The position numbers and the translations under genes are program-made. From IMG/VR virus record IMGVR_UViG_2925891887_000002: 58,711 nucleotides of DNA, one strand, 5' to 3'. Under the pieces are notes generated by a model. The model made no database searches. It saw only the letters and a program-made list of their open reading frames with translations, and had not been told where the DNA came from. This DNA is from a virus. Taxonomy: Duplodnaviria > Heunggongvirae > Uroviricota > Caudoviricetes. Below, in pieces: positions 1 through 57,381 of this stretch (the stretch's first letter is position 1; every line of letters starts with the position of its first letter).

Positions 1-585
1 CTATTCGATAATGGGTCCTGTTGGCCATTCAATATCCGGTGCAGTTGATGTATCAACACGGTTCAGCAATACCCGATACTTTTTCCATGCTTCCAGCAAC
101 GAGATTTCTTCCTCCGTTGCAATTTCCAGATCTGCAGCATCCTGAAGCGGCGCAATATGCTCACTGGCTACCTGCATCAGGTTGTTTTTTGTTTCTTCCG
201 CCTCCCGGATCCGGAACAGTTTTTCTGCTTCCGTATCCTTCACCCAGGCTGTGCCGTTCCACTTCTGAAACTCCCCTTCCGGCGATAACCAGGTAACATT
301 TTCCGGTAACGGACCGAGTTCAGAAATAAATAACGCGTCGCCGGAAGCCACGTCATAAACCGTTTTACCCCGATGATCTTCAACGAGATGCCACGATGAC
401 TCATCACTGTTGAAAACAGCCACGAAGCCAGCCGGAATATCTGGCGGTGCAATATCGGTACTGTTTGCTGGCAGACCTGTATGAGGCGGAATATATGCAT
501 CACCTTCACCAATAAATTCATTAGTTCCGGCCAGCAGATTATAAATTTTTATGGTCCGTGGTTGTTCACTCATTCTGAATGCCAT
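1..585 (-). CDS. tfa: Tail fiber assembly protein Tfa
   Basis: 194 aa, matches lambda Tfa as recalled; stop codon at 1..3. Confidence 0.9.
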
Positions 586-16755: not shown

Positions 16756-18535
<1,780 letters not shown>

Positions 18536-20252: not shown

Positions 20253-21012
20253 TCTTCTCCTCCTCTGTTGATTGTCGCAGCCCGGATTCAAATGCTGCAG
20301 CCGCCCAGGCGGGCGGTTTAAGACCGGCTGCACGGCGCTCCATCGTTTCACGGACCTGCTGGGCAAAAATTTCCTGATAGTCGTCACCGCGTTTTGCGCA
20401 CTCTTTCTCGTAGGTACTCAGTCCGGCTTCTATCAGCATCACCGCTTCCTGAACTTCTTTCAGACCATCGATGGCCATACGACCGGAGCCTATCCAGTCG
20501 CAGTTCCCCCAGGCACTGCGGGCTTCCTGAAAACTGAAGCGCGCTTTTGAAGGTAACGTCACCACGCGGCGAACGATGGCCTCTTCCAGCCAGCACAGAA
20601 ACATCTGGCTCGCCTGACGGGATGCGACGAATTTTCGCCGCCCCATAAAGTACGCCCACGACTCGTTCGCACTGGCCCGTGCCGTGGAGTAGCTCATCTG
20701 GGCGTAATTCCGGGAAAGCTGCTCATACGAGACACCCAGCCCGGCAGCAATATACCGCAACAGTGACTGCTCAAACACGGAGTAGCCGTTATCCGTGTCC
20801 TGAGCCGTCTGCAGGTTCAGTGAGTCCCCCGGCATCAGGTGCGGCACTTTTGCGCCTCCCAGCCGGACCGGTGCTGCGGCGTAATACGCGGCAATTTCAC
20901 CAATCCAGCCAGTCAGCCTTTCCCGCTGCTCCTGACTGTTCGCGCCCAGAATAAAATCCATCGCTGACTGCGTATCCAGCTCACTCTCAATGGTGGCGGC
21001 ATACATCGCCTT
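20233..21012 (-). pseudogene. B: Portal protein B, C-terminal fragment
   Basis: MYAATIESELDTQSAMDF...EEEKSDSRAA matches the lambda B C-terminal half; homology stops at the satellite junction. Confidence 0.9.
21001..21012. other. Satellite att core copy, left junction (ATACATCGCCTT)
   Basis: Direct repeat of 31400..31411 with one mismatch. Confidence 0.65.
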
Positions 21013-21086
21013 TATGAAAAGACAGGAAAAAATAAAATTTAAAAACAGTACATTACGAATGCTCAGACCTATCGTTTAAAGGAGTC

Positions 21087-21107
21087 GCAATACACACTGC
21101 AATACAC
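21087..21107 (+). repeat. Two GCAATACAC direct repeats, putative integrase arm-type sites (left end)
   Basis: Same 9-mer occurs three times at the int-proximal end. Confidence 0.5.
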
Positions 21108-21194
21108 GATTATTTATAAGATGAGCGGCATCCGTCATAAAGCTGGTGGATGCTTTTTCTATGCATATATGCACAGTTTTAGTGGGCGTTAATG

Positions 21195-21218
21195 TCGATA
21201 TAGGGATCCCCATATCGA
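21195..21218. repeat. Nested palindrome TCGATATAGGGATCCCCATATCGA
   Basis: 7-bp inverted arms flanking a GGATCC core. Confidence 0.4.
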
Positions 21219-21450
21219 GATTGGATACCTGGCTTTTTTCCGGTTAACCTTTAATCAGGCTGGTGGGCTTTACCTGTTTTGTATGAGTGGTCATCATGAC
21301 CATGTCATAACAAAAACCCCATATTCGTGGTTTTTCTGTGTCGGGCTATTCTGTCGTTGCTGTGCTGATTTGGCTGGTGGGCTGAATCATCATTACGGCG
21401 ATGCAGCTATGTAGACGTTCCGGCCTCCTCAAATTGAGGATTGTGGAAGA

Positions 21451-21810
21451 ATCAATGGGTTAGTCTTACTTTCCCGACATCCCCCAATGGGGGTTTTCGA
21501 AACAATCAATAGCTTAGGCTTACTTCCCCGATTTCCTGCATTGCAGGTTTTCGAAATAATCAATGGGTTAGGCCATCGTGCAATTTTGCACTTTGCCAGC
21601 CAGCGCAATGTCGCGTTATCAGTCCTCAGATGTGAGGGATGTAGCCAGCTTTTCCCCCAGTGGGGGATATCCAGCACCGACGGCTTAACTGTGCGTGCCA
21701 GCACAAGGTAGCCTTGAACTACTTACTGCATCCCATCTTACAGGCCGTGCCTTCCTGCTTAACTTTTTGCAATGCAACAAGTCAGCCAGCGCAATTTTGC
21801 GTTATCGGGA
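21451..21810. repeat. Array of 54-bp tandem repeat units and 12 to 14-bp GC-rich palindromes, several followed by T-runs
   Basis: Units at 21451, 21505, 21559; palindromes at 21481, 21535, 21578, 21654, 21790. Confidence 0.7.
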
Positions 21811-21821
21811 ATATCAGCAAG

Positions 21822-22103
21822 TTACCGCCGCAATCGTTCCGGCTTCTTCCACTGGTAAGTATTTTTCGCGCTCTCCCTCCGTTGTTGAGAACGGCGACGA
21901 TATGCCAGCAACTCAAGGACTCTTGTTCGTATGTTGCGCATATCCACGCCGTTAAGCTCAATACCGTCACGGCGCATCACCTCAGCCACTACACGCACAT
22001 AATTATCTGCGGTCACGCTGTCCGGCTGCGTGGCCTGTTCGTCATGCTGCTTGCTGATTCCACAAGCACGGCGGATTAATCGCAGTATTTCGGATTCAGT
22101 CAT
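21822..22103 (-). CDS. Hypothetical protein (satellite)
   Basis: 93-aa ORF just downstream of the terS-like gene, same strand. Confidence 0.4.
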   Translation of the reverse strand: MTESEILRLIRRACGISKQHDEQATQPDSVTADNYVRVVAEVMRRDGIELNGVDMRNIRTRVLELLAYRRRSQQRRESAKNTYQWKKPERLRR

Positions 22104-22114
22104 AGCGTACTACG

Positions 22115-22642
22115 TTACTTATCTTTATTCGGCTGCAACTTATCCGGTACGTTTCCGGCAGTTTCCATCAGATAATCGGACAGCATCAGCGGTATGTTTT
22201 CGTCAAGTTTTGCGCATGCGTTACGGGCTCTGATAACTTCTTTTTTCAGTCCATCCAGCATAGACGGCTTCATGTCGGGAAACTTCCTTGTCATGGCAAG
22301 CGGCAGGCTGTCCATGATTGAAGAAATCTGACTCGCTAGTTTTGAAATCGCGTAGATGCAAAACTTTGTATCAATCACCTCGCCGCGTTCGCGCTCGTTT
22401 TTAAGTTCCTGCGCTTCCGCCTGGGCCGTCATTAATCTGATTCTTACGCGTAAAAGTTCATCATCATCAATCTCGCCTTTGTCGTCTGTAATCTGGTTAA
22501 TTGCATTGCTAACCCGATTGTCTATTACGCTGGCAACATCATAAAACGCCTCGCGGCCTTTACGTTCAACGGGAGTCACTCCCCACTTGTCGAACGCTGT
22601 CGCACTTACACGGCAGCTTTGCGCCATGTTTTTTTTGTTCAT
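22115..22642 (-). CDS. Small terminase (Nu1)-like protein, candidate packaging-redirection factor
   Basis: C-terminal two thirds align with Nu1 at 34333..34878 (RLxxAQAxAQELKN..); N-terminus divergent; start chosen at MNKKNMAQ. Confidence 0.7.
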   Translation of the reverse strand: MNKKNMAQSCRVSATAFDKWGVTPVERKGREAFYDVASVIDNRVSNAINQITDDKGEIDDDELLRVRIRLMTAQAEAQELKNERERGEVIDTKFCIYAISKLASQISSIMDSLPLAMTRKFPDMKPSMLDGLKKEVIRARNACAKLDENIPLMLSDYLMETAGNVPDKLQPNKDK

Positions 22643-22790
22643 CAGGTGCGATTTCATCAATATCCCCACTTAAGTAATGTTTCAGGTTGGTGTATTGGCT
22701 TTATCTTTTCCTTTTTATTCATAGAGATAGAGCGAACAACAAAACCACCACCAGCACCCGAAAAAGGCTCATAAATAGCGAAAACCCGCG

Positions 22791-22802
22791 AGGTCGCCGC
22801 CC
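22791..22802. other. Satellite cosN (12-nt cohesive-end sequence)
   Basis: AGGTCGCCGCCC with lambda-like flanks on the cosQ side, divergent on the cosB side. Confidence 0.8.
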
Positions 22803-22858
22803 CGTAGCCTACCGGATCGCCGGAAAGGACCCGCCAGCCAGAACGGGCCCTAATTTCA

Positions 22859-23263
22859 TCAACCAATCAACTTATAGCGACCATCCCGTGCATTGCGACG
22901 TACACGCTCAATCTTGAGGCATAGCGCCGCATCTGGCTTTTTTGGGACAGGTACGCGGCAATATTCAGAAGATCGAGGAATATTGTTTATCCAGTCGATC
23001 ACTTCACTTAAATACCAGGCCTTACGCCCTTCCGTAACCTGTACGCGTTCGGGGAACTCTCCGCGAGCCTCAAGGTTTAGCAATGTGCGACGGCTAAGGG
23101 TAGTAAGTTCCATCACCTGATTCATATCAACAAGGCGTTCACTTAAACGCATTTTGTCAGCAATAGCCTTTAATTCCTCTACTGCTGGATCCGGATACAT
23201 CATTTCGGCAATTGGCTTAAGGTCATTGTAATGATTCTGCATTGTATCCCCCTTTACACACAA
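22859..23263 (-). CDS. AlpA-like HTH protein with N-terminal extension
   Basis: 134-aa ORF; C-terminal half has an AlpA/excisionase-like motif. Confidence 0.5.
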   Translation of the reverse strand: MCVKGDTMQNHYNDLKPIAEMMYPDPAVEELKAIADKMRLSERLVDMNQVMELTTLSRRTLLNLEARGEFPERVQVTEGRKAWYLSEVIDWINNIPRSSEYCRVPVPKKPDAALCLKIERVRRNARDGRYKLIG

Positions 23264-23595
23264 GCCAGCGGCTGAACAGAAATACCTGAGCCAACAAACG
23301 CGGCAACCTTTGCCGACAGTTCTTTTACAGACTCAGGCCAGTTCAGAGCATCAACATTTAAAACACCTGTCTTATAAACCTGTGCCTGTGTTTTTTTCGC
23401 TGTGTCGATTTGTACAGCGGAAACATAAACCGCTTTACCTACGCTCGAACCATCCCATACCACCAGTGCACCTGTTGCATCTTCCTGCATCAGTGGCGTA
23501 AATGCAGGAATTACCCCTTTATTAGCTGAAAATATCCCCAGCGTAGTCACCAGTGCTTCAGTGCCAGCCATGAGTTCAGTGTAATGAGTAGCCAT
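23254..23595 (-). CDS. Head decoration protein D homologue (satellite)
   Basis: 113 aa; conserved blocks shared with D at 18591..18923 (TPLM..WDG, K(S/T)G..WPE). Confidence 0.7.
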   Translation of the reverse strand: MATHYTELMAGTEALVTTLGIFSANKGVIPAFTPLMQEDATGALVVWDGSSVGKAVYVSAVQIDTAKKTQAQVYKTGVLNVDALNWPESVKELSAKVAAFVGSGISVQPLACV

Positions 23596-23604
23596 TGCTC
23601 CCCC

Positions 23605-24651
23605 TTAGCCAATGCGAACGGTAACAAAACGATTGATGCGGGCCGGTATTGGCTGTGGTGCTGAATGTGTCTGCACATATTCAATAGCCGGATCACCAGG
23701 CACAATATAGTTTTTCGGTGCAAGTTCGGCTTTAGTCAGCCCCATTCGGATTAGCTCCGGATCCTGAATACCGCCATAGGCGACAATCCCCTGAAGAGCC
23801 GTATTGCCAAGCACCATCAAATCAGGATCAAGGAAATGTTTTTCTGTTCCGTCCTCGTCGGTATAACGCCCGCTGTAAACAACAATCGCAACATCGCCCA
23901 TATACCCTTTAAAACTCACCGAATCACCAAGGTCTTTAAGGGCCGTTTCCAGTTCGGAATTAGAACCACGACGGGTATCCAAAGCCTCTTTTATCGCTCT
24001 GAATGAACGGTATTTCTTCCATACATTACCACCCATAATGATGATATTAGTGACGCCCTCACTAAATTCTGCGTAGCTCTCAATATCATCATTTGGATCA
24101 AAAGTTTCTTTATCCTTACCTGACCACTCAGTACCGCCAGACTGAGTGATGATATTTTGTGGTTTTATATTCCAGTCCAGCTCATAACGTTCAATACCAT
24201 CGCCCTCAATGATATTTTTCCCCGTTGTGATTGCCTGAACAGCAAGCCATTCAATACGTGCACGAATAGCTTTAGCCTGATTTACAATCGCCTGTTTAAC
24301 TTTAATATTACGCGCCCCAAAAGCATTGTATTGCTCAGGTGACACACCAGCAGGGCGCACAGCTAACTTATTTGGATCAATGCTGCTTTTCGGCTTCATA
24401 TAACCTGGACGAATTGTTTTTGATTCGTATCCCTCATCTCGTGAAACTTTACTGCCCACCATAGGAGAGCAAAACGCCGCGATCGGGATATTTGGATCGT
24501 CGATCGTATCAAGAATAATGTCTCTCGATTCAAACATTACCGAGCGAGTGAAAAACAAACTGGTAAACAACGCATTTAATTTTTTTTGCACATCTTCAGC
24601 ATTAGCCACCTGCACAAGCTGTGTAGGCGAATATAAATCAACCATACGCAT
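23605..24651 (-). CDS. Major capsid protein E homologue (satellite)
   Basis: Aligns with E along its length (ITQSGGTEWS, DPxDDIE, LDTRRGSNSELETA, AIVVYSG); start chosen at MRMVDLY; ORF extends upstream to 24819. Confidence 0.75.
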   Translation of the reverse strand: MRMVDLYSPTQLVQVANAEDVQKKLNALFTSLFFTRSVMFESRDIILDTIDDPNIPIAAFCSPMVGSKVSRDEGYESKTIRPGYMKPKSSIDPNKLAVRPAGVSPEQYNAFGARNIKVKQAIVNQAKAIRARIEWLAVQAITTGKNIIEGDGIERYELDWNIKPQNIITQSGGTEWSGKDKETFDPNDDIESYAEFSEGVTNIIIMGGNVWKKYRSFRAIKEALDTRRGSNSELETALKDLGDSVSFKGYMGDVAIVVYSGRYTDEDGTEKHFLDPDLMVLGNTALQGIVAYGGIQDPELIRMGLTKAELAPKNYIVPGDPAIEYVQTHSAPQPIPARINRFVTVRIG

Positions 24652-24862
24652 CCTCTTTGCATTCATTAAAAATAATTGTGGATATATGCTATCACCGATA
24701 TTTGTCATGCGAATACATGCAACCGAGTGCAATGTTGTATAAAGTTTTGGGATAACAACTTCAGCGCGGATAATTAGTGTTAATATCTTCACTCCCTTTG
24801 GTCGGGATTTATGTAGCATGCCGGAAAATTTATTTTTTTCCGGCCTTTTTTATTGGCAATAT

Positions 24863-25312
24863 TTAAAACGGAATATCATCTCCCCATTGCTCATTTTCTC
24901 CCACTGGTGGATGGCTTCCTTGCTGATCTGCCTGTTGTTTTGCTCTGTTCAGTGCGTCAGTAGCCTGACCCTGTTGACCTTTTTTGCCGCCCGGTCGCAC
25001 CGTTCGCGCACTGATTACGCTGTCTGCGATAACCTGCCAGCCCTGCCGCGTTTCACCGTTCTGGCCTGTCCACTGTCTTACCTGCATGTTACCCGCCACG
25101 CTCACCAGTTCGCCTTTGTGGTGTTTTGCCAGTGCGTCGGCCTGTCTGCCAAACGCCAGGACGGATAACCACATCGTCGCCGTTCCGTCATCTGCCTGGC
25201 TGCACGGAAGGGGGACCGCCATACTAGCCATCGTCATTTGTGTACCCTTGCTGGTGGTCTTTAACTGCGGGTCAGCCACCAGCCGCCCGTAAGCCGCTAT
25301 CTGTGCTGTCAT
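24863..25312 (-). CDS. ssb: Single-stranded DNA-binding protein
   Basis: 149 aa, OB-fold-like, ends with the SSB acidic tip DDIPF. Confidence 0.7.
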   Translation of the reverse strand: MTAQIAAYGRLVADPQLKTTSKGTQMTMASMAVPLPCSQADDGTATMWLSVLAFGRQADALAKHHKGELVSVAGNMQVRQWTGQNGETRQGWQVIADSVISARTVRPGGKKGQQGQATDALNRAKQQADQQGSHPPVGENEQWGDDIPF

Positions 25313-25560
25313 GCTGTCTGCTCTCCAGTTTTAACGTTGATGGTTGTCACCTGTTCCGCTTCGGCAATCTCCCGTTCTGTCAGCGTGGCAAAGTTTGCCG
25401 CCGTCGTGGTCATGAATGCGCTTATCAGTTCGGGGTGTGCTTTCGCGTATCCTTCCCCAGCGTGGCGGTCTATCGTTCTGATTGCCACCTTTAAGGCGTG
25501 CTCTGTCATGTCTAACGCTTTATATTTTGGCGCTGTCTTATCTCTGGTTTTTCTGGTCAT
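25309..25560 (-). CDS. Hypothetical protein (satellite)
   Basis: 83-aa ORF between ori and ssb. Confidence 0.4.
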   Translation of the reverse strand: MTRKTRDKTAPKYKALDMTEHALKVAIRTIDRHAGEGYAKAHPELISAFMTTTAANFATLTEREIAEAEQVTTINVKTGEQTA

Positions 25561-25765
25561 TCCTCACTGCTCCCCACTTTTACTACCCACTTTTTGAAAT
25601 TACCCAACGTCTCCCCACTTCTTTTTTTTGTGATTCTAACGTGATGTTTTTCAATGTGTTTTTTATTCCCCACTTTTTGGGGTATATACAGGTGGGAAAG
25701 TGGGGAATCACGTTTCAATTTTGTTAAATTCCCCACACTCCCCACTTTTACTACCCACTTTTTAC
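25561..25765. repeat. Putative satellite replication origin with CCCCACT iterons
   Basis: At least eight CCCCACT(T) motifs in both orientations plus AT-rich stretches, directly 3' of the rep gene. Confidence 0.6.
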
Positions 25766-27177
25766 AGTGGGCGCACGTCATCACCGTCAATAGCAATAAC
25801 GCCATCACCTTCCAGCTTGTACAGCCAGCGCCGGAAGTGTTTCATCTCATACCCCAGCTTTTTCATATCATCGCGCAACAACGGAATAGTGCATTTATCT
25901 CCGCGCTGTGTGCGTGAACGGATACAGCCCCATAGCGCGGCATGATTCTCCGTCTTGTTCCCGGCTTCCTCGATGCGCTCCAGTTCAACGGGTGGGCGCG
26001 GCTTATCCACAACAACCAGCGACGTGATTAACTCCCCGTCAGTGTCGGTAAAAAGCTCCACCACACGTAAATCGTATGCGGCCTCTTTCAGTTCCTCCGC
26101 GTCCTTCATTTTTGTGCAGGAGATAACCAGGGCTTCACTGTCTGCACCTTCACGGCGAATACGGTATTCAGCGTCCAGAGATGCACGAAATGCACTGGAA
26201 CCACGCGCCCCCTTTGTTTCATCCTTGCCGGAATGGTGAACCACCAGCACCGTGGCCCCTGTGCGGCGTTTCAGTTCGTCACATCCACGGATAAACGCCC
26301 CCATATCCCGCGCGTCATTTTCATCATTACCGCCAAAGCAACGCGCCAGCGTATCAAGAATAATCATGCGTACCGGTTTACCCGTTTCCCGTTCAACCTG
26401 GCGGGAAGCGATGACCATTTCATCAACATCAAGCGGGACTGCCGGAAAAATCGGGCGGTTTACCAGGTACAGATTTTCCACCCGTTCATCATTAACGATT
26501 TCCCATGCCTTGATACGGCGGGGGACACCAATGCCACCTTCACCGACAACATACATCACCGAACCATGCGCCACCCTGCGGCCTCCCCAGTGACGGCCAG
26601 TGGCAACATGACACGCCCAGGAACACGCGAGGAACGATTTATAGGAACCGCTCGCGCCGTATGTGCTGCACAATGAATTAGCCGGAATCACGCCCTTAAC
26701 GACATAATCAAGCTGTGTGTCGTACCCTGCAGATCCAATGCTCATTGGTAGCGTGGTTTTTCGCTGGCTGTATTGCTCGTCAGTAAGTATTTCCCCGCGC
26801 TCTGCCTGTTCGCGGATCCGTTGCAGGTAGTCGTGCCAGTTCTCCAGCTTCTGGCTGTGCATTCCATCAGGGTAATAATTCGCATCCCGTACACCTGCCG
26901 CCGCCAGCTTTTGCCCGATAGCATTAATATTTGACGGCTTGATGTGGCCTGCCTTGTACAGCCGGACACAATAGCGACCATCGTCGATAATTTTCAGGTC
27001 TGCCAGTTCGTCAAGCTGGCTGTCTCCCAGCCATACAGGCGGGACGTTATCACCAGCAAGTCGCCCGTCCTGTTCCTGCCACTGTTTCGCGTGCGCCCAG
27101 GCATCACTACCCGCAAAAATAATGACTTCGGTCATTTTGTCGTGTGGCTGTTTTTTTAAGTTCGGTGCCAGTTTCAT
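25762..27177 (-). CDS. Replication initiator ATPase (RepA/AAA_25-like helicase with primase-like N-terminus)
   Basis: 471 aa; Walker A GASGSYKS; ILDTLARCF and LVVHHSGK motifs. Confidence 0.7.
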   Translation of the reverse strand: MKLAPNLKKQPHDKMTEVIIFAGSDAWAHAKQWQEQDGRLAGDNVPPVWLGDSQLDELADLKIIDDGRYCVRLYKAGHIKPSNINAIGQKLAAAGVRDANYYPDGMHSQKLENWHDYLQRIREQAERGEILTDEQYSQRKTTLPMSIGSAGYDTQLDYVVKGVIPANSLCSTYGASGSYKSFLACSWACHVATGRHWGGRRVAHGSVMYVVGEGGIGVPRRIKAWEIVNDERVENLYLVNRPIFPAVPLDVDEMVIASRQVERETGKPVRMIILDTLARCFGGNDENDARDMGAFIRGCDELKRRTGATVLVVHHSGKDETKGARGSSAFRASLDAEYRIRREGADSEALVISCTKMKDAEELKEAAYDLRVVELFTDTDGELITSLVVVDKPRPPVELERIEEAGNKTENHAALWGCIRSRTQRGDKCTIPLLRDDMKKLGYEMKHFRRWLYKLEGDGVIAIDGDDVRPL

Positions 27178-27473
27178 TTTTTGCCCCTGAATGCGTTAAT
27201 CATGTTTTTCATTTTCTGAATATTTGCCCGTGCCTTTGCGTTGCTGGTGGGCTGTTTGCGTGGTGTGGCCTGTATCAGTGAAAAATCACGCCGGAACTGA
27301 TAAGCAGGCATCACGCAGTCATAGCCGTACCCATCACGGCGGTAAGTAACGCACCGCCCCGCCACGCTTTTAATCGTTACCGTGCCACCGTAGTTATCCC
27401 GGAAAATATCGCCGGGGCGGATTTCAGGCCGAGGGAGACCACTGGCAGTAAAGCCAGAATTTTTCTGTTTCAT
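27174..27473 (-). CDS. Hypothetical protein
   Basis: 99-aa ORF. Confidence 0.4.
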   Translation of the reverse strand: MKQKNSGFTASGLPRPEIRPGDIFRDNYGGTVTIKSVAGRCVTYRRDGYGYDCVMPAYQFRRDFSLIQATPRKQPTSNAKARANIQKMKNMINAFRGKK

Positions 27474-27479
27474 GTTTTT

Positions 27480-27698
27480 TTACTCCAGAGGCAGATTTTT
27501 AGCGGCGAGTTCAATATCAGATGTCAGAGAAACCTGTGTATTTGCCAGGTCTAACAACAAAGAAATAAGAATTTCCTCTCTGCTATCGGATTCATCGGTG
27601 CTAAGGCTGTTCATCCACATATTGACGACTTCCCTGATTTTTTTCGCAGAGTGCAGGGCTTCAAATGCCAGGTCTTCAATATCATGTTTATTTCGCAT
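27480..27698 (-). CDS. Hypothetical small protein
   Basis: ORF from internal Met MRNKHDIEDL. Confidence 0.3.
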   Translation of the reverse strand: MRNKHDIEDLAFEALHSAKKIREVVNMWMNSLSTDESDSREEILISLLLDLANTQVSLTSDIELAAKNLPLE

Positions 27699-27900
27699 AA
27701 TCGCCCCCGCGTAACTGGTCTGCACTAACACCCGATTTAGTGAGCATTTCAGAAAATCCCGCAAGAGTGCTGATAAATTCGTTTTCCATTAAACGGCACT
27801 GGCATTTAACCCGGCCTTTTTCCAGATACACCAGTACGCGCCACGTATAATCTGACGGCACATTCAGCACTACAGATAAGTGCGCTTCATTATTATTCAT
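27688..27900 (-). CDS. Hypothetical small protein
   Basis: 70-aa ORF. Confidence 0.35.
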   Translation of the reverse strand: MNNNEAHLSVVLNVPSDYTWRVLVYLEKGRVKCQCRLMENEFISTLAGFSEMLTKSGVSADQLRGGDYAK

Positions 27901-28129
27901 GGCTCACCACCTCCATATCAGCCATGATAATTTTGCTGGCCTCATTCAGTGCCATATCAGCACTAAGTTGCATTACAGCCAGTGAATGAGGAACGAAAGC
28001 CCCGGCATATTCTGTTTCACTGGTAGCGTGCTTATGCGCCCTGTCCGCGATAACAGAAATATCAATCAGCGCATCAATCAGTGTTTTGATTGCTTCGGCG
28101 GCTGCGTCCGGACGGGTGTTATTGCACAT
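27893..28129 (-). CDS. Hypothetical small protein
   Basis: 78-aa ORF. Confidence 0.35.
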   Translation of the reverse strand: MCNNTRPDAAAEAIKTLIDALIDISVIADRAHKHATSETEYAGAFVPHSLAVMQLSADMALNEASKIIMADMEVVSHE

Positions 28130-28325
28130 GGTGCACCCCCTGACGAATACGGGCGGCGAATACCATCACGCAGCCAGCCGGTGATTGCTGACGGGCTTCC
28201 TGTTCGCTGGTGGCCTCAATGGTAATCACGCGCGGTTGTGCCGTACTCAGGGCGATAAAACGCCAGATGTATTTATTCAGGTTGTGCGAGCCCCGCCCTT
28301 GCGGGTGTGTGGTATGATTTCTCAT
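28119..28325 (-). CDS. Hypothetical small protein, first gene of the leftward satellite operon
   Basis: 68-aa tail of a longer spurious ORF, starting at ATG 28323..28325 next to the operator region. Confidence 0.35.
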   Translation of the reverse strand: MRNHTTHPQGRGSHNLNKYIWRFIALSTAQPRVITIEATSEQEARQQSPAGCVMVFAARIRQGVHHVQ

Positions 28326-28422
28326 AGCTACCTCGATACTGTTGCTATCGTTGGTGGTTAGAAGCCCGGTTAGTGTTAGCGCACTGCCGGGTTTCGTCGT
28401 TTCTGCACCTTGCACCAACAAG

Positions 28423-28474
28423 GTGTTGAACACCAATTTAAACCCAGGTGTTGAACACGTCAAGTGTTGAACAC
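28423..28474. promoter_or_regulatory. Three direct repeats of GTGTTGAACAC in a divergent promoter region (putative operators)
   Basis: Repeats at 28423, 28448 and 28464 between divergent small genes. Confidence 0.55.
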
Positions 28475-28524
28475 TTGTTTTTTTTCCTGCATACTGCATT
28501 TGTTTTTTGTGAGGGGTACACAAC

Positions 28525-28704
28525 ATGGCGACAAAAGCAGTAAACGCAAAATCACAAACAGTTGCGGCAAGGGTTCCGCATGAAGTTATGAACAATGTTG
28601 AGGCGGTAAAAATGCCTGGTGAAAGTACAGGGCAGTTTGTAACAGCAGCATTAAAGCGAGAAGTTGAATACCGCCAGCGACGCAAGGCTAAAGAGCAAGA
28701 ATAA
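28525..28704 (+). CDS. Small putative DNA-binding regulator
   Basis: 59-aa ORF (not in the track) with GAGGGG Shine-Dalgarno 8 nt upstream. Confidence 0.45.
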   Translation: MATKAVNAKSQTVAARVPHEVMNNVEAVKMPGESTGQFVTAALKREVEYRQRRKAKEQE

Positions 28705-28761
28705 TCACTATCAGCGCTGTGGTGTGAGGTACTCCGGCGCATTGCTTTACAGGTCGGCACT

Positions 28762-28971
28762 ATGAGCAAAAAATACCTATCCACTGAAGAGATTTTCGCA
28801 GAACAACGAAGATTGCTTTTACAGAGCATTGTTGCACGCCAGAAAGAAAAGGCACACGCTAAACAAATGCCACCAAATACAGAACCAGCGCCTACAAAAT
28901 TTGCGCTTGATGAGTTTCTCAATAAACAGCCCCGGGTAATGAAAGCTAACAGGAACCGCCCACCAGGCTGA
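28762..28971 (+). CDS. Hypothetical small protein
   Basis: 69-aa ORF downstream of the regulator. Confidence 0.4.
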   Translation: MSKKYLSTEEIFAEQRRLLLQSIVARQKEKAHAKQMPPNTEPAPTKFALDEFLNKQPRVMKANRNRPPG

Positions 28972-29067
28972 TCACATTGCCCACCAGCCGCAAATGTGGC
29001 ATTGTTGGTGATGCTTTTGTTTTCCCTTGTTCCCACTGGCGACCCTTTTGCGGTCGCCTTTGTTTTG

Positions 29068-29646
29068 TCACTGAATGCGGTTACCAAAGTAAAACTCAGG
29101 CTGATATTCACGTATCAGCGTTTTTTCTTCTTCCTCCAGCTCACGCTTTTTGCGCTTACATGCCTGTAGCTCCCTCCCCTTCTCGCTGGCACTTATTTGA
29201 TATTGCTCTTTACGGCGGGAAAAATCCTGTAATGCACCCCACGGGATACCATAAGCCCCCGTTTTTCTGATACCCGGTATCACATTTCTGAATACCCAGT
29301 TACTGAAACGATGAGCAAATGTGCCAGGCGTCGTTGCTTTGCGGCTGCGGGCTATTAGTTTGTAGAAACCTGACTCAGAGATAATTCTCATATTCTGATT
29401 TCCTCCTGGGGTGTAAGTTAAATTTACTCCCTTTTCATCATCATCAAGCATCTGCAACGCCGTACGCGAATTGGTTAGTTCCAGCACAGCACAAACATCT
29501 TTTGCAACAAACCACGGATCGCCGTTCAGATACACCACACGAACGTTCACACTATCAAAGCGCAGAACGACGAGATCACGAATATCGCAGAATTTTTTCA
29601 CTGGACGAGCGTACCCCTTGCCCGTCACGGCAATATTTTTATTCAT
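29068..29646 (-). CDS. Bro-N domain protein (antirepressor-like)
   Basis: 192 aa; N-terminal motif VRVVYLNGDPWFVAKDV typical of Bro-N. Confidence 0.65.
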   Translation of the reverse strand: MNKNIAVTGKGYARPVKKFCDIRDLVVLRFDSVNVRVVYLNGDPWFVAKDVCAVLELTNSRTALQMLDDDEKGVNLTYTPGGNQNMRIISESGFYKLIARSRKATTPGTFAHRFSNWVFRNVIPGIRKTGAYGIPWGALQDFSRRKEQYQISASEKGRELQACKRKKRELEEEEKTLIREYQPEFYFGNRIQ

Positions 29647-29663
29647 CGCGTTTTTACCTTATA

Positions 29664-29690
29664 GACAAAAAACCCCTCGTGATGAGGGGC
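29664..29690 (-). terminator. Rho-independent terminator downstream of alpA
   Basis: CCCCTC..GAGGGG hairpin followed by a T-run on the minus strand. Confidence 0.55.
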
Positions 29691-29702
29691 ATTATTTACT
29701 GG

Positions 29703-29960
29703 TTATTGCTGTTTTGTTTTTCCAGGTTTCCATCCAGGATGCCACTCACCACGGATCCATGCCTGAACCTCTGAAAGTCGATACCCTGCAGCACGTTCAC
29801 CGATCTTGATACGTCGCGGGAATTTACCTGCCTGCTCCATTTTCCAGCGTGTTGAGTTTGCCAGCGTGGTAAGTGCTATGCACTCTTTTTCACGAATGAA
29901 CCGATCAATGTCCTTCATTGTGCGCAAATCGTTTTCATCAACAAGAGAATAAATTGCCAT
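29703..29960 (-). CDS. alpA: AlpA-family regulator / excisionase
   Basis: 85 aa, AlpA motif, directly downstream of int. Confidence 0.75.
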   Translation of the reverse strand: MAIYSLVDENDLRTMKDIDRFIREKECIALTTLANSTRWKMEQAGKFPRRIKIGERAAGYRLSEVQAWIRGEWHPGWKPGKTKQQ

Positions 29961-29961
29961 A

Positions 29962-31203
29962 TCACACCACCTCTTTATTAAGCTCGATAACGTTGTTGTT
30001 AAATCCTGCTATCGTATTAAGGTAATTAACCCATATATTAAGCACCTCAAGTTTTTTCTTTATATGCCTGCTTTTATTGTAAACACCAGCAACCCCTTTC
30101 ACTTTATGACCTAAAAGAAGTTCGACAATATAAGGATCCGCCCCCATATCATTAAGCGTAGTGGAAAATGTGCGCCTGAAATCATGTATGCACCACAAGC
30201 CATTAGTATCATGACCAAGACGCCTGCATATTCTGTTTGCAGCCCCTGTTATTGTCGCCCTTTGCAAAGCACAACCGACAACATAACCGCGATTTTTTGT
30301 TTCTGCGTAAAGATTAACGATCCATTGTTTTATTCCGTCAGGAACAGGCCTTACTATAGCCTCCTTGTTTTTGCTGTGCTCTTTTGGGACTGTCCATACC
30401 CAGTTTTTTAAATCCCATTCGTCCCAGGTGGATAGCCTCGCCTCCTGCTGTCGGCAACCAAACACCAGGCAGATAACCATTATTCTTCGGTTATATATTG
30501 ATGACAGAGTTAGCAAATTATTACCGTAAGCATAAGACCATACATCAGCGGTTTCATTGATATTAAGAACGCGATCCCTTATACCGGATGAGCGCCCGAC
30601 ATAACTTACGTTAATATCTCCAAAGGGATCGCACGCGATGTATTGCCTGACGCGACAAAAACGCAACGCCTGTTTGATATCAAGAAAAATTGCACCAGAC
30701 ATAACAGGCGCATTTTTTTTGATCCTGTCAAAGACGGTAAGCCATGTGTGTAATTTGCACTGTTCTATAGCCATATCACCGATATAGGGGAAGATATGCT
30801 TTTCAAATCGTTTTATTAAATATTCATGCTCTTTTCTGGCTGTTGTGGCGTGATTGTCGTACCAGTAAAACAGCGCATCCCTTACGGTCACTGGTTGCAT
30901 AGTTTTTTCGGCAGCAAGTTTTATTTGCCTGCGGGGGTCCAGATTTTCAGCCAGCCATTCACGGCACTGATCACGCATGCGCCTGGCCGTTGCAAGAGAC
31001 ATGTCAGGATAGCGACCAAGTGTAAGCCATACCGGAGGGGATTCCCTGCCACCAAGACGATAGTAAAAAACAAAGCTGATCCCCCCAACCATGCTTACAC
31101 GCACAGACAACCCGCGCCCATCCGCTATTGTTTTTTGTTTGTCCTGCCGTTTTCCGACAAGACTCTTTAACAGTTTGTCACTGAGTTTGTTTTCAATAGC
31201 CAT
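29962..31203 (-). CDS. int: Tyrosine integrase (P4/PICI-type)
   Basis: 413 aa; C-terminal HDFRRTF and LLGH..Y catalytic motifs. Confidence 0.85.
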   Translation of the reverse strand: MAIENKLSDKLLKSLVGKRQDKQKTIADGRGLSVRVSMVGGISFVFYYRLGGRESPPVWLTLGRYPDMSLATARRMRDQCREWLAENLDPRRQIKLAAEKTMQPVTVRDALFYWYDNHATTARKEHEYLIKRFEKHIFPYIGDMAIEQCKLHTWLTVFDRIKKNAPVMSGAIFLDIKQALRFCRVRQYIACDPFGDINVSYVGRSSGIRDRVLNINETADVWSYAYGNNLLTLSSIYNRRIMVICLVFGCRQQEARLSTWDEWDLKNWVWTVPKEHSKNKEAIVRPVPDGIKQWIVNLYAETKNRGYVVGCALQRATITGAANRICRRLGHDTNGLWCIHDFRRTFSTTLNDMGADPYIVELLLGHKVKGVAGVYNKSRHIKKKLEVLNIWVNYLNTIAGFNNNVIELNKEVV

Positions 31204-31223
31204 TAAAAGCCCTCAAGAGATTT

Positions 31224-31274
31224 GCAATACACACCCATCCCGATCGCCAATTTGCAATACACATTGCAATACAC
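31224..31274 (+). repeat. Three GCAATACAC direct repeats, putative integrase arm-type sites (int-proximal)
   Basis: Copies at 31224, 31254 and 31266. Confidence 0.5.
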
Positions 31275-31399
31275 AAAACCGCGAAAAACTGGAAGGGTGA
31301 TGAACGGTCATCAAAAGCATGGAAAACGACATTCCAGACGCAGCAAGGGTTTCAGTGGAGTTGGCGAACGATGCGGGCAACTACGGTGAGATGATAGAC

Positions 31400-34332
<2,933 letters not shown>

Positions 34333-34878: not shown

Positions 34879-35055
34879 TGTTCATTCCACGGACAAAAAC
34901 AGAGAAAGGAAACGACAGAGGCCAAAAAGCTCGCTTTCAGCACCTGTCGCTTCCTTTCTTTTCAGAGGGTATTTTAAATAAAAACATTAAGTTATGACGA
35001 AGAAGAACGGAAACGCCTTAAACCGGAAAATTTTCATAAATAGCGAAAACCCGCG

Positions 35056-35067
35056 AGGTCGCCGCCC
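35056..35067. other. Prophage cosN (12-nt cohesive end)
   Basis: AGGTCGCCGCCC with flanks matching both lambda ends as recalled. Confidence 0.9.
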
Positions 35068-35266
35068 CGTAACCTGTCGGATCGCCGGAAAGGACCCGCA
35101 AAATGATAATAATTATCATCTGCATGTCACAACGTGCATCTACGCCATCAAACCACGTCAAATAATCAATTATGACGCAGGTATCATATTAATTGATCTG
35201 CATCAACTTAACGTAAAAACAACTTCAGACAATACAAATCAGCGACACTGAATACGGGACAACCTC

Positions 35267-51621: not shown

Positions 51622-51693
51622 GTGCGGTTTTACCGCATACCAATAACGCTTCACTCGAGGCGTTTTTCGTTATGTATAAATAAGGAGCACACC

Positions 51694-51858
51694 ATGCAAT
51701 ATGCCATTGCAGGGTGGCCTGTTGCTGGCTGCCCTTCCGAATCTTTACTTGAACGAATCACCCGTAAATTACGTGACGGATGGAAACGCCTTATCGACAT
51801 ACTTAATCAGCCAGGAGTCCCAAAGAATGGATCAAACACTTATGGCTATCCAGACTAA
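51694..51858 (+). CDS. cIII: cIII
   Basis: 54 aa from MQYAIAGWPVAGCPSES, lambda cIII match. Confidence 0.9.
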   Translation: MQYAIAGWPVAGCPSESLLERITRKLRDGWKRLIDILNQPGVPKNGSNTYGYPD

Positions 51859-57293: not shown

Positions 57294-57381
57294 TGATTTT
57301 ATTTTGACTGATAGTGACCTGTTCGTTGCAACAAATTGATAAGCAATGCTTTTTTATAATGCCAACTTAGTATAAAAAAGC
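57294..57381. other. attL: lambda P' arm plus 15-bp core (TTAGTATAAAAAAGC at 57367..57381)
   Basis: Reverse complement of the lambda core GCTTTTTTATACTAA; P' arm sequence as recalled; junction to host DNA. Confidence 0.85.

Follow-up and report, generated by a model that had tools for sequence, protein, structure and literature searches.

Locus and repeat array

The window analyzed here is a whole 58,711-nucleotide stretch of viral DNA (IMG/VR record IMGVR_UViG_2925891887_000002; Caudoviricetes) and represents a lambda-like Escherichia coli prophage with a 10.4-kb element in its portal gene (element at approximately 21007 to 31400; C-terminal part of the portal gene ending at approximately 21006 to 21016, N-terminal part beginning at approximately 31401). 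By its gene content, its insertion in a prophage late gene, and its clade-specific attP motif, the element is a helper-embedded phage-inducible chromosomal island (HE-PICI), a kind of satellite described by Tommasini, Mageeney and Williams (PMC10111431); a preliminary description of this DNA, made from its letters alone, had rightly called it a satellite. Here, we report a tandem array of palindromes and consensus sites for integration host factor (IHF) in this element. The array begins at the stop codon of a gene for a 93-amino-acid protein (orf93), in an 800-bp noncoding stretch between orf93 and attP, and its units match a short piece of roi, a regulator gene of lambdoid phages.

Tandem Repeats Finder reported a period of 54 (2.3 copies, 80% matches) at 21450 to 21573, and a gapless repeat finder placed three 54-nt copies in register at 21420, 21474, and 21528 (tandem stretch, 21420 to 21581). 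The perfect palindrome, at a fixed offset, differs from copy to copy (TCCTCAAATTGAGGA, CCCCCAATGGGGG, and CCTGCATTGCAGG), and six more short palindromes follow the three units, as far as 21801. Between 21420 and 21830, 9 palindromes (arms of at least 5 bp, centers of at most 4 nt) were counted in 411 nt, a number never reached in 1,000 dinucleotide-preserving shuffles (mean, 1.7; maximum, 6) or in 281 other windows of the 58.7-kb sequence (mean, 1.8; maximum, 7).

The two repeat searches and the palindrome count (9 versus approximately 1.7 expected) confirm the tandem 54-bp array with differing palindromes that had been described at first sight. Its units had been set at 21451, 21505, and 21559; the 54-bp repeats stand, but that register is shifted from the natural unit, which starts at 21420, so that the first palindrome, CCTCAAATTGAGG, was missed. 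Two of the palindromes said to share one position do so, but the third, GTGCAATTTTGCAC, lies 19 nt (not 30) after the start of the conserved block in that register and is without a phage counterpart. The shared "flank" AATCAATGGGTTAG is conserved as stated and was further identified as a perfect IHF core consensus, and the two additional palindromes noted near 21654 and 21790 were recovered at 21653 to 21667 and 21790 to 21801. The features of the array are as follows.

21420 to 21473 (+): unit 1, with palindrome TCCTCAAATTGAGGA (21426 to 21440), spacer TTGTGGAAG, and IHF core AATCAATGGGTTA (21450 to 21462)
21474 to 21527 (+): unit 2, with palindrome CCCCCAATGGGGG (21481 to 21493), spacer TTTTCGAAAC, and IHF core AATCAATAGCTTA (21504 to 21516)
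21528 to 21581 (+): unit 3, with palindrome CCTGCATTGCAGG (21535 to 21547), spacer TTTTCGAAAT, and IHF core AATCAATGGGTTA (21558 to 21570)
21578 to 21591: palindrome GTGCAATTTTGCAC, without IHF core and without phage homologue
21597 to 21667: degenerate modules, consisting of the 24-nt repeat CAGCCAGCGCAATGTCGCGTTATC (a copy of 21783 to 21806), then CCTCAGATGTGAGG (21624 to 21637) and TCCCCCAGTGGGGGA (21653 to 21667)
21704 and 21767: palindromes CAAGGTAGCCTTG and TTGCAATGCAA, respectively
21783 to 21824 (+): terminal unit, with palindrome CGCAATTTTGCG (21790 to 21801), spacer TTATCGGGAA, and IHF-like core TATCAGCAAGTTA with one mismatch (21812 to 21824)

The half-site classes of units 1 to 3 are CCTCAA/TTGAGG, CCCCCA/TGGGGG, and CCTGCA/TGCAGG, respectively. 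Perfect matches to the IHF core consensus WATCAANNNNTTR at 21450, 21504, and 21558 make up three of the six in the window (2.4 expected), and a fourth is the H' core of the lambda attP (TATCAATTTGTTG; 57329 to 57341, minus strand), which served as a positive control for the scan. The array units therefore carry the IHF core consensus, with actual binding and bending by IHF as a prediction. Palindrome GTGCAATTTTGCAC has a counterpart, GTGCAAATTTGCAC, in L004, L102, and L104 (compared loci are cited by L number), and its arms have grown to 11 bp in L103; the degenerate modules of 21597 to 21667 are kept in L004. The terminal unit, in which the TTA of the IHF-like core is the orf93 stop codon on the minus strand, sits where other satellites have a TTCGCCGCTGGCGAA...TATCAACCAGTTA unit.

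Homology to phage roi genes

The roi gene of lambdoid phages encodes a Rha-type winged-helix N-terminal domain and a KilAC domain. Each array unit is a sense-strand copy of an 18-codon piece of roi (codons approximately 41 to 58, within the Rha-type domain), and the layout of the phage module, a palindrome followed 9 to 10 bp on by a perfect IHF core (WATCAANNNNTTR), is that of the array units. In BLAST searches against E. coli genomes and phage records (alignments of 49 to 53 nt), unit 1 was 94 to 96% identical, in sense orientation, to roi or "antirepressor KilAC domain" genes of phi330/Lahn2-type phages, its allele type being that of the phi330, Lahn2, and L003 roi genes; unit 2 was 90.6% identical, also in sense orientation, to roi of VT2-Sakai and approximately 60 other Stx phages, where the allele's own palindrome is imperfect (CCCCCAATGGTGG, versus the perfect CCCCCAATGGGGG of unit 2). 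The palindrome and spacer of unit 3 equal a third allele (L031-type roi; CCTGCATTGCAGG-TTTTCGAAA), whose half-site is shared with HK022 roi. On these alignments, the units almost certainly derive from the roi module. This homology, the key to the feature, was overlooked in the preliminary description. By BLAST, 21017 to 21425 and 21570 to 21800 had no phage homologues above chance.

The phage side was surveyed in 164 loci with roi-like genes, of which a unit profile (nhmmer) scored 137 but not the HK022-type loci. All 137 held exactly one unit, always at the same codons, and the palindrome occurred at most once per locus in all 164. HK022, inspected separately, has one module, and its palindrome is unique in the 40.7-kb genome; extra operator-like copies of the roi palindromes were found neither near roi nor elsewhere in HK022 and VT2-Sakai, and no match to the IHF consensus other than the roi core was seen in 13.7 kb of HK022 or 50 kb of VT2-Sakai. 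Phage palindromes fall into at least six sequence classes, the IHF core always lies 9 to 10 bp 3' of them, and the site is a short distance upstream of Q. All 22 distinct phage alleles use the rare TTA for the Leu codon within the IHF core, which argues for selection on the DNA sequence itself. Pfam family Phage_pRha was above threshold for two of three proteins (L129 and L003), with HK022 Roi just under it (25.2 versus 29.9 bits), and a sequence search returned no solved structure for the Roi N-terminal domain.

The array does not share the phage-type location (inside the roi gene, one copy per genome), being noncoding and tandem. The plus-strand frame that is open across units 1 to 3 was inherited from roi. 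Open reading frames of 74 amino acids (plus strand) and 91 amino acids (minus strand) do cross the region, which by the preliminary description no open reading frame explains, but neither is a credible gene. A coding repeat was considered and rejected: the first start codon lies inside unit 2, no Shine-Dalgarno sequence was seen by eye, and the frame is lost in homologues, where the 43-bp spacing of L102 and variable spacers elsewhere break it, so the array is not coding.

Distribution in satellites and islands

The unit profile found 73 copies (36 distinct) in 28 satellite or island loci, comprising another HE-PICI in a prophage terL gene, satellite-size IMG/VR contigs, and islands adjoining dinD. 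Unit direction is uniform within each element and, in satellites, opposite to the satellite genes. Unit number runs from 0 or 1 (the O157 PICI at phoQ; the PICI at clpS) to approximately 6, with mixed classes side by side; besides the three classes of the window, TTCGCCGCTGGCGAA, CAGCCGTTGGCTG, CCGCCAATGGCTG, and CCACAGTCTGTGG were found, giving at least seven among satellites. In many satellites, the IHF-like core of the last unit overlaps the orf93 stop codon. One dinD island (L102) has a spacing of 43 rather than 54 bp, the result of an 11-bp deletion (approximately one helical turn), and both spacings are near whole helical turns.

At least 80% of the three-unit array is present in about 196 of 5,426 complete E. 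coli genomes, and array-bearing E. coli include pathogenic lineages with Stx phages whose roi alleles match the units. A scan of genome contigs for IHF-like cores paired 54 bp apart returned 16 chance matches in unrelated taxa, none of them enterobacterial, so the array is absent from the single representative genomes. A looser tandem pattern in IMG/VR returned only E. coli-type satellites and a few unrelated AT-rich coding repeats; neither scan found the array outside E. coli-type elements.

The dinD islands with roi-type units (L102, 7001 to 7096; L104, 6996 to 7048; L004, 6001 to 6107) are not clearly satellites. Two of them have the units directly 3' of a perC-family gene, and one has them approximately 200 bp upstream of a gene for a Q antiterminator, which is on the opposite strand.

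A second antirepressor palindrome

Another antirepressor family carries a perfect palindrome of 21 bp, AACTACGAAAATTTCGTAGTT, within the coding sequence of its N-terminal domain (codons approximately 50 to 58, LNYENFVV); the palindrome is identical in the antirepressor genes of at least 16 phage contigs (e.g., L234, 1201 to 1226); Pfam assigned a KilAC domain to one family member, from a Hafnia phage. It also occurs in intergenic, operator-like positions in approximately 10 other phage contigs and in the same noncoding zone of approximately 12 satellites (L232, 4925 to 4950; L004, at approximately 5885; L105, L109, L116, and L119). By this match, AACTACGAAAATTTCGTAGTT is a second, independent instance in which satellites have copied a palindrome from within an antirepressor gene, although this one lacks an IHF core.

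Selection on symmetry

The preliminary description held that symmetry is selected while the sequence changes, and a covariance check bore this out. Over 40 distinct units (28 satellite, 12 phage) and seven dyad pairs, standard pairs filled 87.9% of cells, compared with 67.2% after shuffling (reached in 0 of 500 shuffles) and 29 to 52% with the partner column slid. Double-sided changes occur at all seven pairs, and pair 10-18 shows four Watson-Crick types. The compensatory changes in the array are real, and the dyad is under selection. Satellite copies are more symmetric than the coding originals (CCCCCAATGGGGG versus CCCCCAATGGTGG; a 15-bp palindrome versus the 13-bp CCTCAAATTGAGG), which is what release from coding constraint would allow if affinity were selected. 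The IHF core is kept in the noncoding satellite units even though its free bases differ from those of phages (AATCAACGGGTTA versus AATCAATAACTTA).

Satellite palindromes coincide with the phage allele classes, adjacent spacer included, and in phages the palindrome class follows protein residues approximately 22 to 40 without exception, in two gene backgrounds. These residues hold a putative recognition helix, placed there by sub-threshold winged helix-turn-helix profiles. The helix variants pair with half-sites as follows: KRHDNVKRTIETL with CCTCAA, SRHDKVKQSIERL with CCCCCA, SQHSDVKRSIERL with CCGCCA, and SQHKDVKRSIERL with GCGCCA; NVK[I/V]SI is common to two otherwise divergent CTGCA alleles. 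For the three classes of the window, the Roi helix variants are KRHDNVKRTIETL, SRHDKVKQSIERL, and SRPDNVKISIERL or that of HK022. This pairing of helix variant with half-site variant suggests a simple recognition code.

The Roi-like variable block (residues approximately 22 to 62) was also seen to move as a cassette between a nin-region Roi with a KilAC domain and a post-cro gene with a different C-terminal domain (L002, L003, L005 to L085, and L129 to L209).

The selected symmetry could act in single strands, as RNA stem-loops in the 3' tail of the terS-orf93 operon (stabilizers or processing sites like repetitive extragenic palindromic [REP] elements), as weak terminators, or as single-stranded DNA signals for priming or initiation, with the IHF motif secondary. 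The pairing is kept through compensatory changes, the array starts at the stop codon of the last operon gene, and the satellite has its own single-stranded DNA-binding protein and helicase, all in keeping with hairpins. Both strands also fold better than shuffles (z = -3.4 and -4.1), an excess to be expected of any palindrome-rich sequence. Among plus-strand mismatches, G·T outnumbers A·C (8 versus 2 in total; 7 versus 1 in satellites), but the commonest phage allele has a C·T mismatch, which is not a wobble pair. The stems, moreover, are just 5 to 7 bp with centers of 1 to 3 nt, and the orientation to the upstream gene differs between satellites and dinD islands. Terminators and small RNAs had been among the functions proposed at first, and neither was borne out: no intrinsic terminator was called among the unit palindromes (criterion, a G+C-rich stem of at least five pairs and then at least five T residues within 8 nt), many unit classes lack a T-run (spacers ATTGTGGAAG, TTCCCGAAAA, and others), so that it is not a conserved feature, and Rfam 15, which includes C4, IsrK, and terminator-like families, had no match in 20900 to 22200 at either the gathering score or an E value of ≤5. 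A promoter scan gave only one weak promoter-like site (21138 to 21109, minus strand). Structure alone would also leave the identity to roi alleles, the IHF core fixed at 9 to 10 bp, and the helix-tracking class unexplained, and we regard hairpins as an unlikely basis for the array. Duplex DNA read by proteins is favored instead, because the palindromes are of phage classes, the IHF core lies at a fixed distance, the class is linked to the helix, and a second antirepressor case exists. Of the two options left by the preliminary description, structure or a dimeric protein, the protein is better supported than structure alone, since the palindromes are those of phage roi genes, stand beside an IHF core, and track a putative recognition helix.

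Base pairing with phage transcripts was weighed as well. Read-through of the satellite late operon on the minus strand would yield an antisense RNA that pairs with roi mRNAs of several phage types and so causes the phage early-right transcript to be cleaved upstream of Q. In all 28 satellite loci, the units are in roi sense on the strand opposite the satellite genes, no terminator was found between orf93 and the array, identity to phage alleles reaches 49/50 (unit 1) and 48/53 (unit 2), and RNA regulators are known in satellites of this group (PMC10111431). That identity, however, decays beyond the palindrome and spacer, the flanks and the NNNN of the IHF core being satellite specific, and the most widespread unit, TTCGCCGCTGGCGAA, is only 81% identical to the nearest phage allele. 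In dinD islands, the array follows perC in sense orientation, pairing would need neither an IHF consensus nor perfected palindromes, and roi is in neither embedded helper. Antisense action is accordingly quite improbable.

Equally improbable in our judgment is that the array is debris, either scars of repeated satellite-phage recombination at roi or a decayed, captured roi fragment amplified by slippage. PICIs of this group do capture helper DNA (PMC10111431), the plus-strand frame is still open across three units, and the array is dispensable and variable. Debris would not account for a 54-bp module that alone is kept, never with adjacent roi sequence, for palindromes that are perfect or near perfect in most of the 36 distinct noncoding units and more symmetric than in genes, for retention of the IHF core, for different alleles adjacent in register, or for a second, unrelated antirepressor palindrome that behaves alike.

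Proposed action on helper phages

We give about an even chance to the reading that the array consists of tandem copies of the cis-module found once in the roi/rha-type regulator genes of lambdoid phages and acts as an array of binding sites. That the units work at the DNA level as sites for IHF and Roi-type proteins is, from the features described, slightly more probable than the contrary. Host IHF would bind and bend each unit at WATCAANNNNTTR, and a dimer of a phage Roi-type winged-helix protein would bind the neighboring palindrome, the palindrome class setting which Roi variant fits. No Roi or Rha homologue is encoded anywhere in the window or in any satellite locus, and units 1 to 3 would therefore be orphan operators that act in trans, one for each of three Roi specificities belonging to helper or competing phages. 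Since the phage has a single Roi site and the satellite replicates, an array of such presumably high-affinity operators would compete with the phage site: as a decoy (sponge) on the multicopy replicating satellite, it would draw Roi from the one autoregulatory site upstream of the phage Q gene and alter the helper's Roi autoregulation or roadblock. In close variants, the satellite would sense phage early expression, or the array would form a roadblock at the end of the late operon. Among these roles, we choose the decoy over a sensor or roadblock, though with low confidence. It is a tentative suggestion, and somewhat unlikely as a general statement, that PICI-type satellites keep an evolvable noncoding library of operator mimics, copied from the intragenic autoregulatory sites of antirepressor-family regulators (Roi/Rha and KilAC proteins) and each joining a specificity palindrome to an IHF site, as a sponge or eavesdropping device that would cover several helper or rival phage types at once. 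The array better fits an arms-race accessory than an essential cis-site, with several specificities side by side, gain and loss of units, a noncoding tail position, and perfected symmetry.

Several points weigh against this action, in which both the binding of Roi and IHF and its consequence are inferred. The roi gene was not found in the two embedded helper prophages examined (that of the window and that of L231), both of which are degraded; in the helper of L103, the early region is deleted. No recognizable promoter lies near the array, so the output of a sensor is not evident. Helix and palindrome are approximately 50 bp apart in one recombination block, and their correlation may therefore be mere linkage. 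The G·T excess among imperfect satellite palindromes on the plus strand (7, versus 1 A·C) is a weak hint of single-strand hairpin constraint. Related satellites with 0 or 1 units make the array dispensable, and classes TTCGCCGCTGGCGAA, CAGCCGTTGGCTG, and CCACAGTCTGTGG have no close allele in the sampled phages.

The closest known object is the site inside roi, of which the array is a derived, reused form. The roi genes of HK022 and other lambdoid phages (roi/rha) hold the same module, with palindromes CTGCATTGCAG in HK022 and CCTCAAATTGAGG, CCCCCAATGGTGG, and CCTGCATTGCAGG in others, 9 to 10 bp upstream of WATCAANNNNTTR; that site is single, coding, and beside its cognate gene, whereas the array is noncoding, has three units (up to six elsewhere) of mixed classes, and comes without an encoded Roi. 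In HK022, Roi is reported (Clerget and Boccard, in 1996) to bind within roi itself, at a site close to an IHF site, with IHF stabilizing the binding. Products of the Rha family block the growth of phages when the host is IHF deficient, and rha is itself regulated by IHF (PMC4936722). The comparison places a probable Roi operator with its IHF partner inside roi, from sequence alone, and suggests a cis basis for the Rha/Roi phenotype (the growth block in IHF-deficient hosts). It also points to overlapping codes, with a palindrome and a rare-codon IHF core kept within the coding sequence of the very domain presumed to read them.

Other systems resemble the array in part. In RIB/RIP elements (bacterial interspersed mosaic elements of E. 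coli), which are found at operon 3' ends, an IHF site is flanked by REP palindromic units; like them, the array combines extragenic palindromes with an IHF consensus right after the last gene of an operon, but it has no visible REP consensus, its palindromes are 13 to 15 bp rather than approximately 35 bp, and it is of phage-gene origin and confined to satellites and islands rather than dispersed in the chromosome. Titrating clusters include datA (DnaA boxes with an essential IHF site), sopC of the F plasmid (12 43-bp repeats, each with a 7-bp inverted repeat), and plasmid iterons. These too are clustered tandem sites, some needing IHF, that sequester or organize a trans-acting protein; unlike them, with their one site and a protein from the same replicon, the array has a palindrome that differs per unit and a presumed ligand encoded by phages. 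An iteron- or centromere-type array (one protein, one site) was rejected for the three different palindromes of the three units. In lambda cosB (R sites for Nu1 and IHF site I1), an IHF site likewise lies beside short protein-binding repeats, and the satellite has a Nu1-like small terminase subunit, but the array lacks similarity to R sites, and the satellite cosQ/cosN, which directly precedes terS just as that of lambda does, is 1.2 kb off. RNA immunity elements of P4/P1-type satellites (CI/seqA, C4, and IsrK) have been reported in some HE-PICIs (PMC10111431). The array shares with these the character of short, repeated satellite regulatory sequences related to a gene of the Bro network (an antirepressor) but has no Rfam match and is placed at the element's late end, away from the Bro zone.

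The paper on HE-PICIs makes no mention of the array, Roi, or these IHF sites (PMC10111431), and a literature search found nothing relevant on Roi with satellites and no description of the array. An array of DNA decoy or sensor sites directed against a regulator of the helper would bear on how Gram-negative PICIs perceive or manipulate their helpers and, to our knowledge, would have no precedent, the known cases of satellite action on helpers using proteins or RNAs. If the proposed action is true, the satellite would pull Roi off the site upstream of Q and so reset the helper's switch from early to late expression.

Satellite and helper context

The genes of the element encode an integrase, an AlpA homologue, a Bro-N protein, an Icd-like protein, a RepA-type helicase, a single-stranded DNA-binding protein, a major capsid protein, a head decoration protein, a second AlpA-like protein, a Nu1-like small terminase subunit, and the 93-amino-acid protein. 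The features around the array are as follows.

21087 to 21106 (-): attP arm motif TGTATTGCAGTGTGTATTGC/TGTATTGCAnTGTGTATTGC, with its partner at 31254 to 31273; inner limit of attP, >300 bp from the array
21142, 21259, and 21373 (+; span, 21142 to 21380): cluster of Chi sites, approximately 115 bp apart, between attP and the array
21822 to 22103 (-): orf93 (phrog_1561, function unknown), last gene of the satellite late operon, with its stop codon at 21822 to 21824
22115 to 22669 (-): satellite terminase small subunit gene (terS), Nu1-like
22791 to 22802 (-): satellite cosN GGGCGGCGACCT, with a cosQ flank identical to that of lambda, directly upstream of terS

Packaging and replication cis-sites had also been proposed for the array at first. 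As a cis-site for the satellite's own cycle, it would reuse IHF as an accessory TerS packaging site, as a replication enhancer or origin, or as an outer attP arm, with the palindromes bound by AlpA-like, Bro-N, or orf93 proteins. Many origins, as well as cosB and attP, typically have IHF sites; the array stands between the late operon and attP, approximately 1.2 to 1.4 kb from the satellite cosN; its 54-bp and 43-bp spacings are near whole helical turns; and the zone has other palindrome families and a Chi cluster. The exact lambda cosQ/cosN, however, is at 22791 to 22802, which means that the array is not the cos site and leaves the packaging proposal without support; a lambda-type cos in the array was rejected on the same ground, as cosN GGGCGGCGACCT with its cosQ and the cosB position adjoins terS, outside the array, and no IHF core was found there. 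(The prophage's own cos is at 35056 to 35067, minus strand.) In this clade, attP has a doubled TGTATTGC arm motif approximately 81 and 132 bp from the crossover, and the arm motifs of the integrase clade, within approximately 130 bp of the core, are unlike IHF sites (PMC10111431). An attP arm was likewise rejected, as the motifs of the element are at 21087 to 21106 and 31254 to 31273 and the array lies inward of them by more than 300 bp. A single satellite protein would be unable to recognize three to six different palindromes, and the same units occur in dinD islands that are not satellites. Closely related satellites differ in unit number, from 0 to 6, which is unlikely for an essential cis-site; the replication proposal is likewise not supported. 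A role in the satellite's own cycle is thus very unlikely, and an array of sites for phage Roi remains our preferred reading.

On the 3' side of the satellite cosN, the sequence is unlike that of the prophage cos (22700 to 22850 compared with 35000 to 35120, minus strand) and includes a Chi site at 22748 to 22755. This divergence points to a cosB peculiar to the satellite; the satellite TerS would read it and redirect the large terminase of the helper.

The 58.7-kb window has 10 Chi sites (GCTGGTGG), every one of them within the 10.4-kb satellite (21142 to 28988; 6 on the plus and 4 on the minus strand) and none in the 48 kb of prophage; 1.9 would be expected by chance, and 10 were reached in 0 of 100 shuffles. 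The cluster beside the array faces RecBCD entering from the cos end of the satellite. The Chi sites look like protection of the satellite's linear or rolling-circle DNA, a proposal made because the satellite has no annotated Gam-like gene.

Neighboring palindromes of the noncoding zone are TGCATATATGCA (21162), the near-palindrome AATGTCGATATAGGGA/TCCCCATATCGAGATT (21191 to 21222), and TGGTCATCATGACCA (21288). Repeated relatives of the zone palindromes occur in L103 (6778 to 6870 and 7316 to 7410), with CGATATGGGAATCCCCATATCG followed by a Chi site and with TGGTCATTATGACCA and ATTCAGAAT; L232 is similar.

In the helper, IS621 (IS110 family) at approximately 16800 to 17800 splits the prophage major capsid gene, as seen in an identical E. 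coli record; with both portal and capsid genes interrupted, the helper prophage is doubly disabled. Rfam matched IS009 at 44 to 242 (minus strand) and the lambda cIII thermoregulator element at 51681 to 51739 (plus strand), the latter, with the H' core, being an ordinary feature of a lambda-like prophage.

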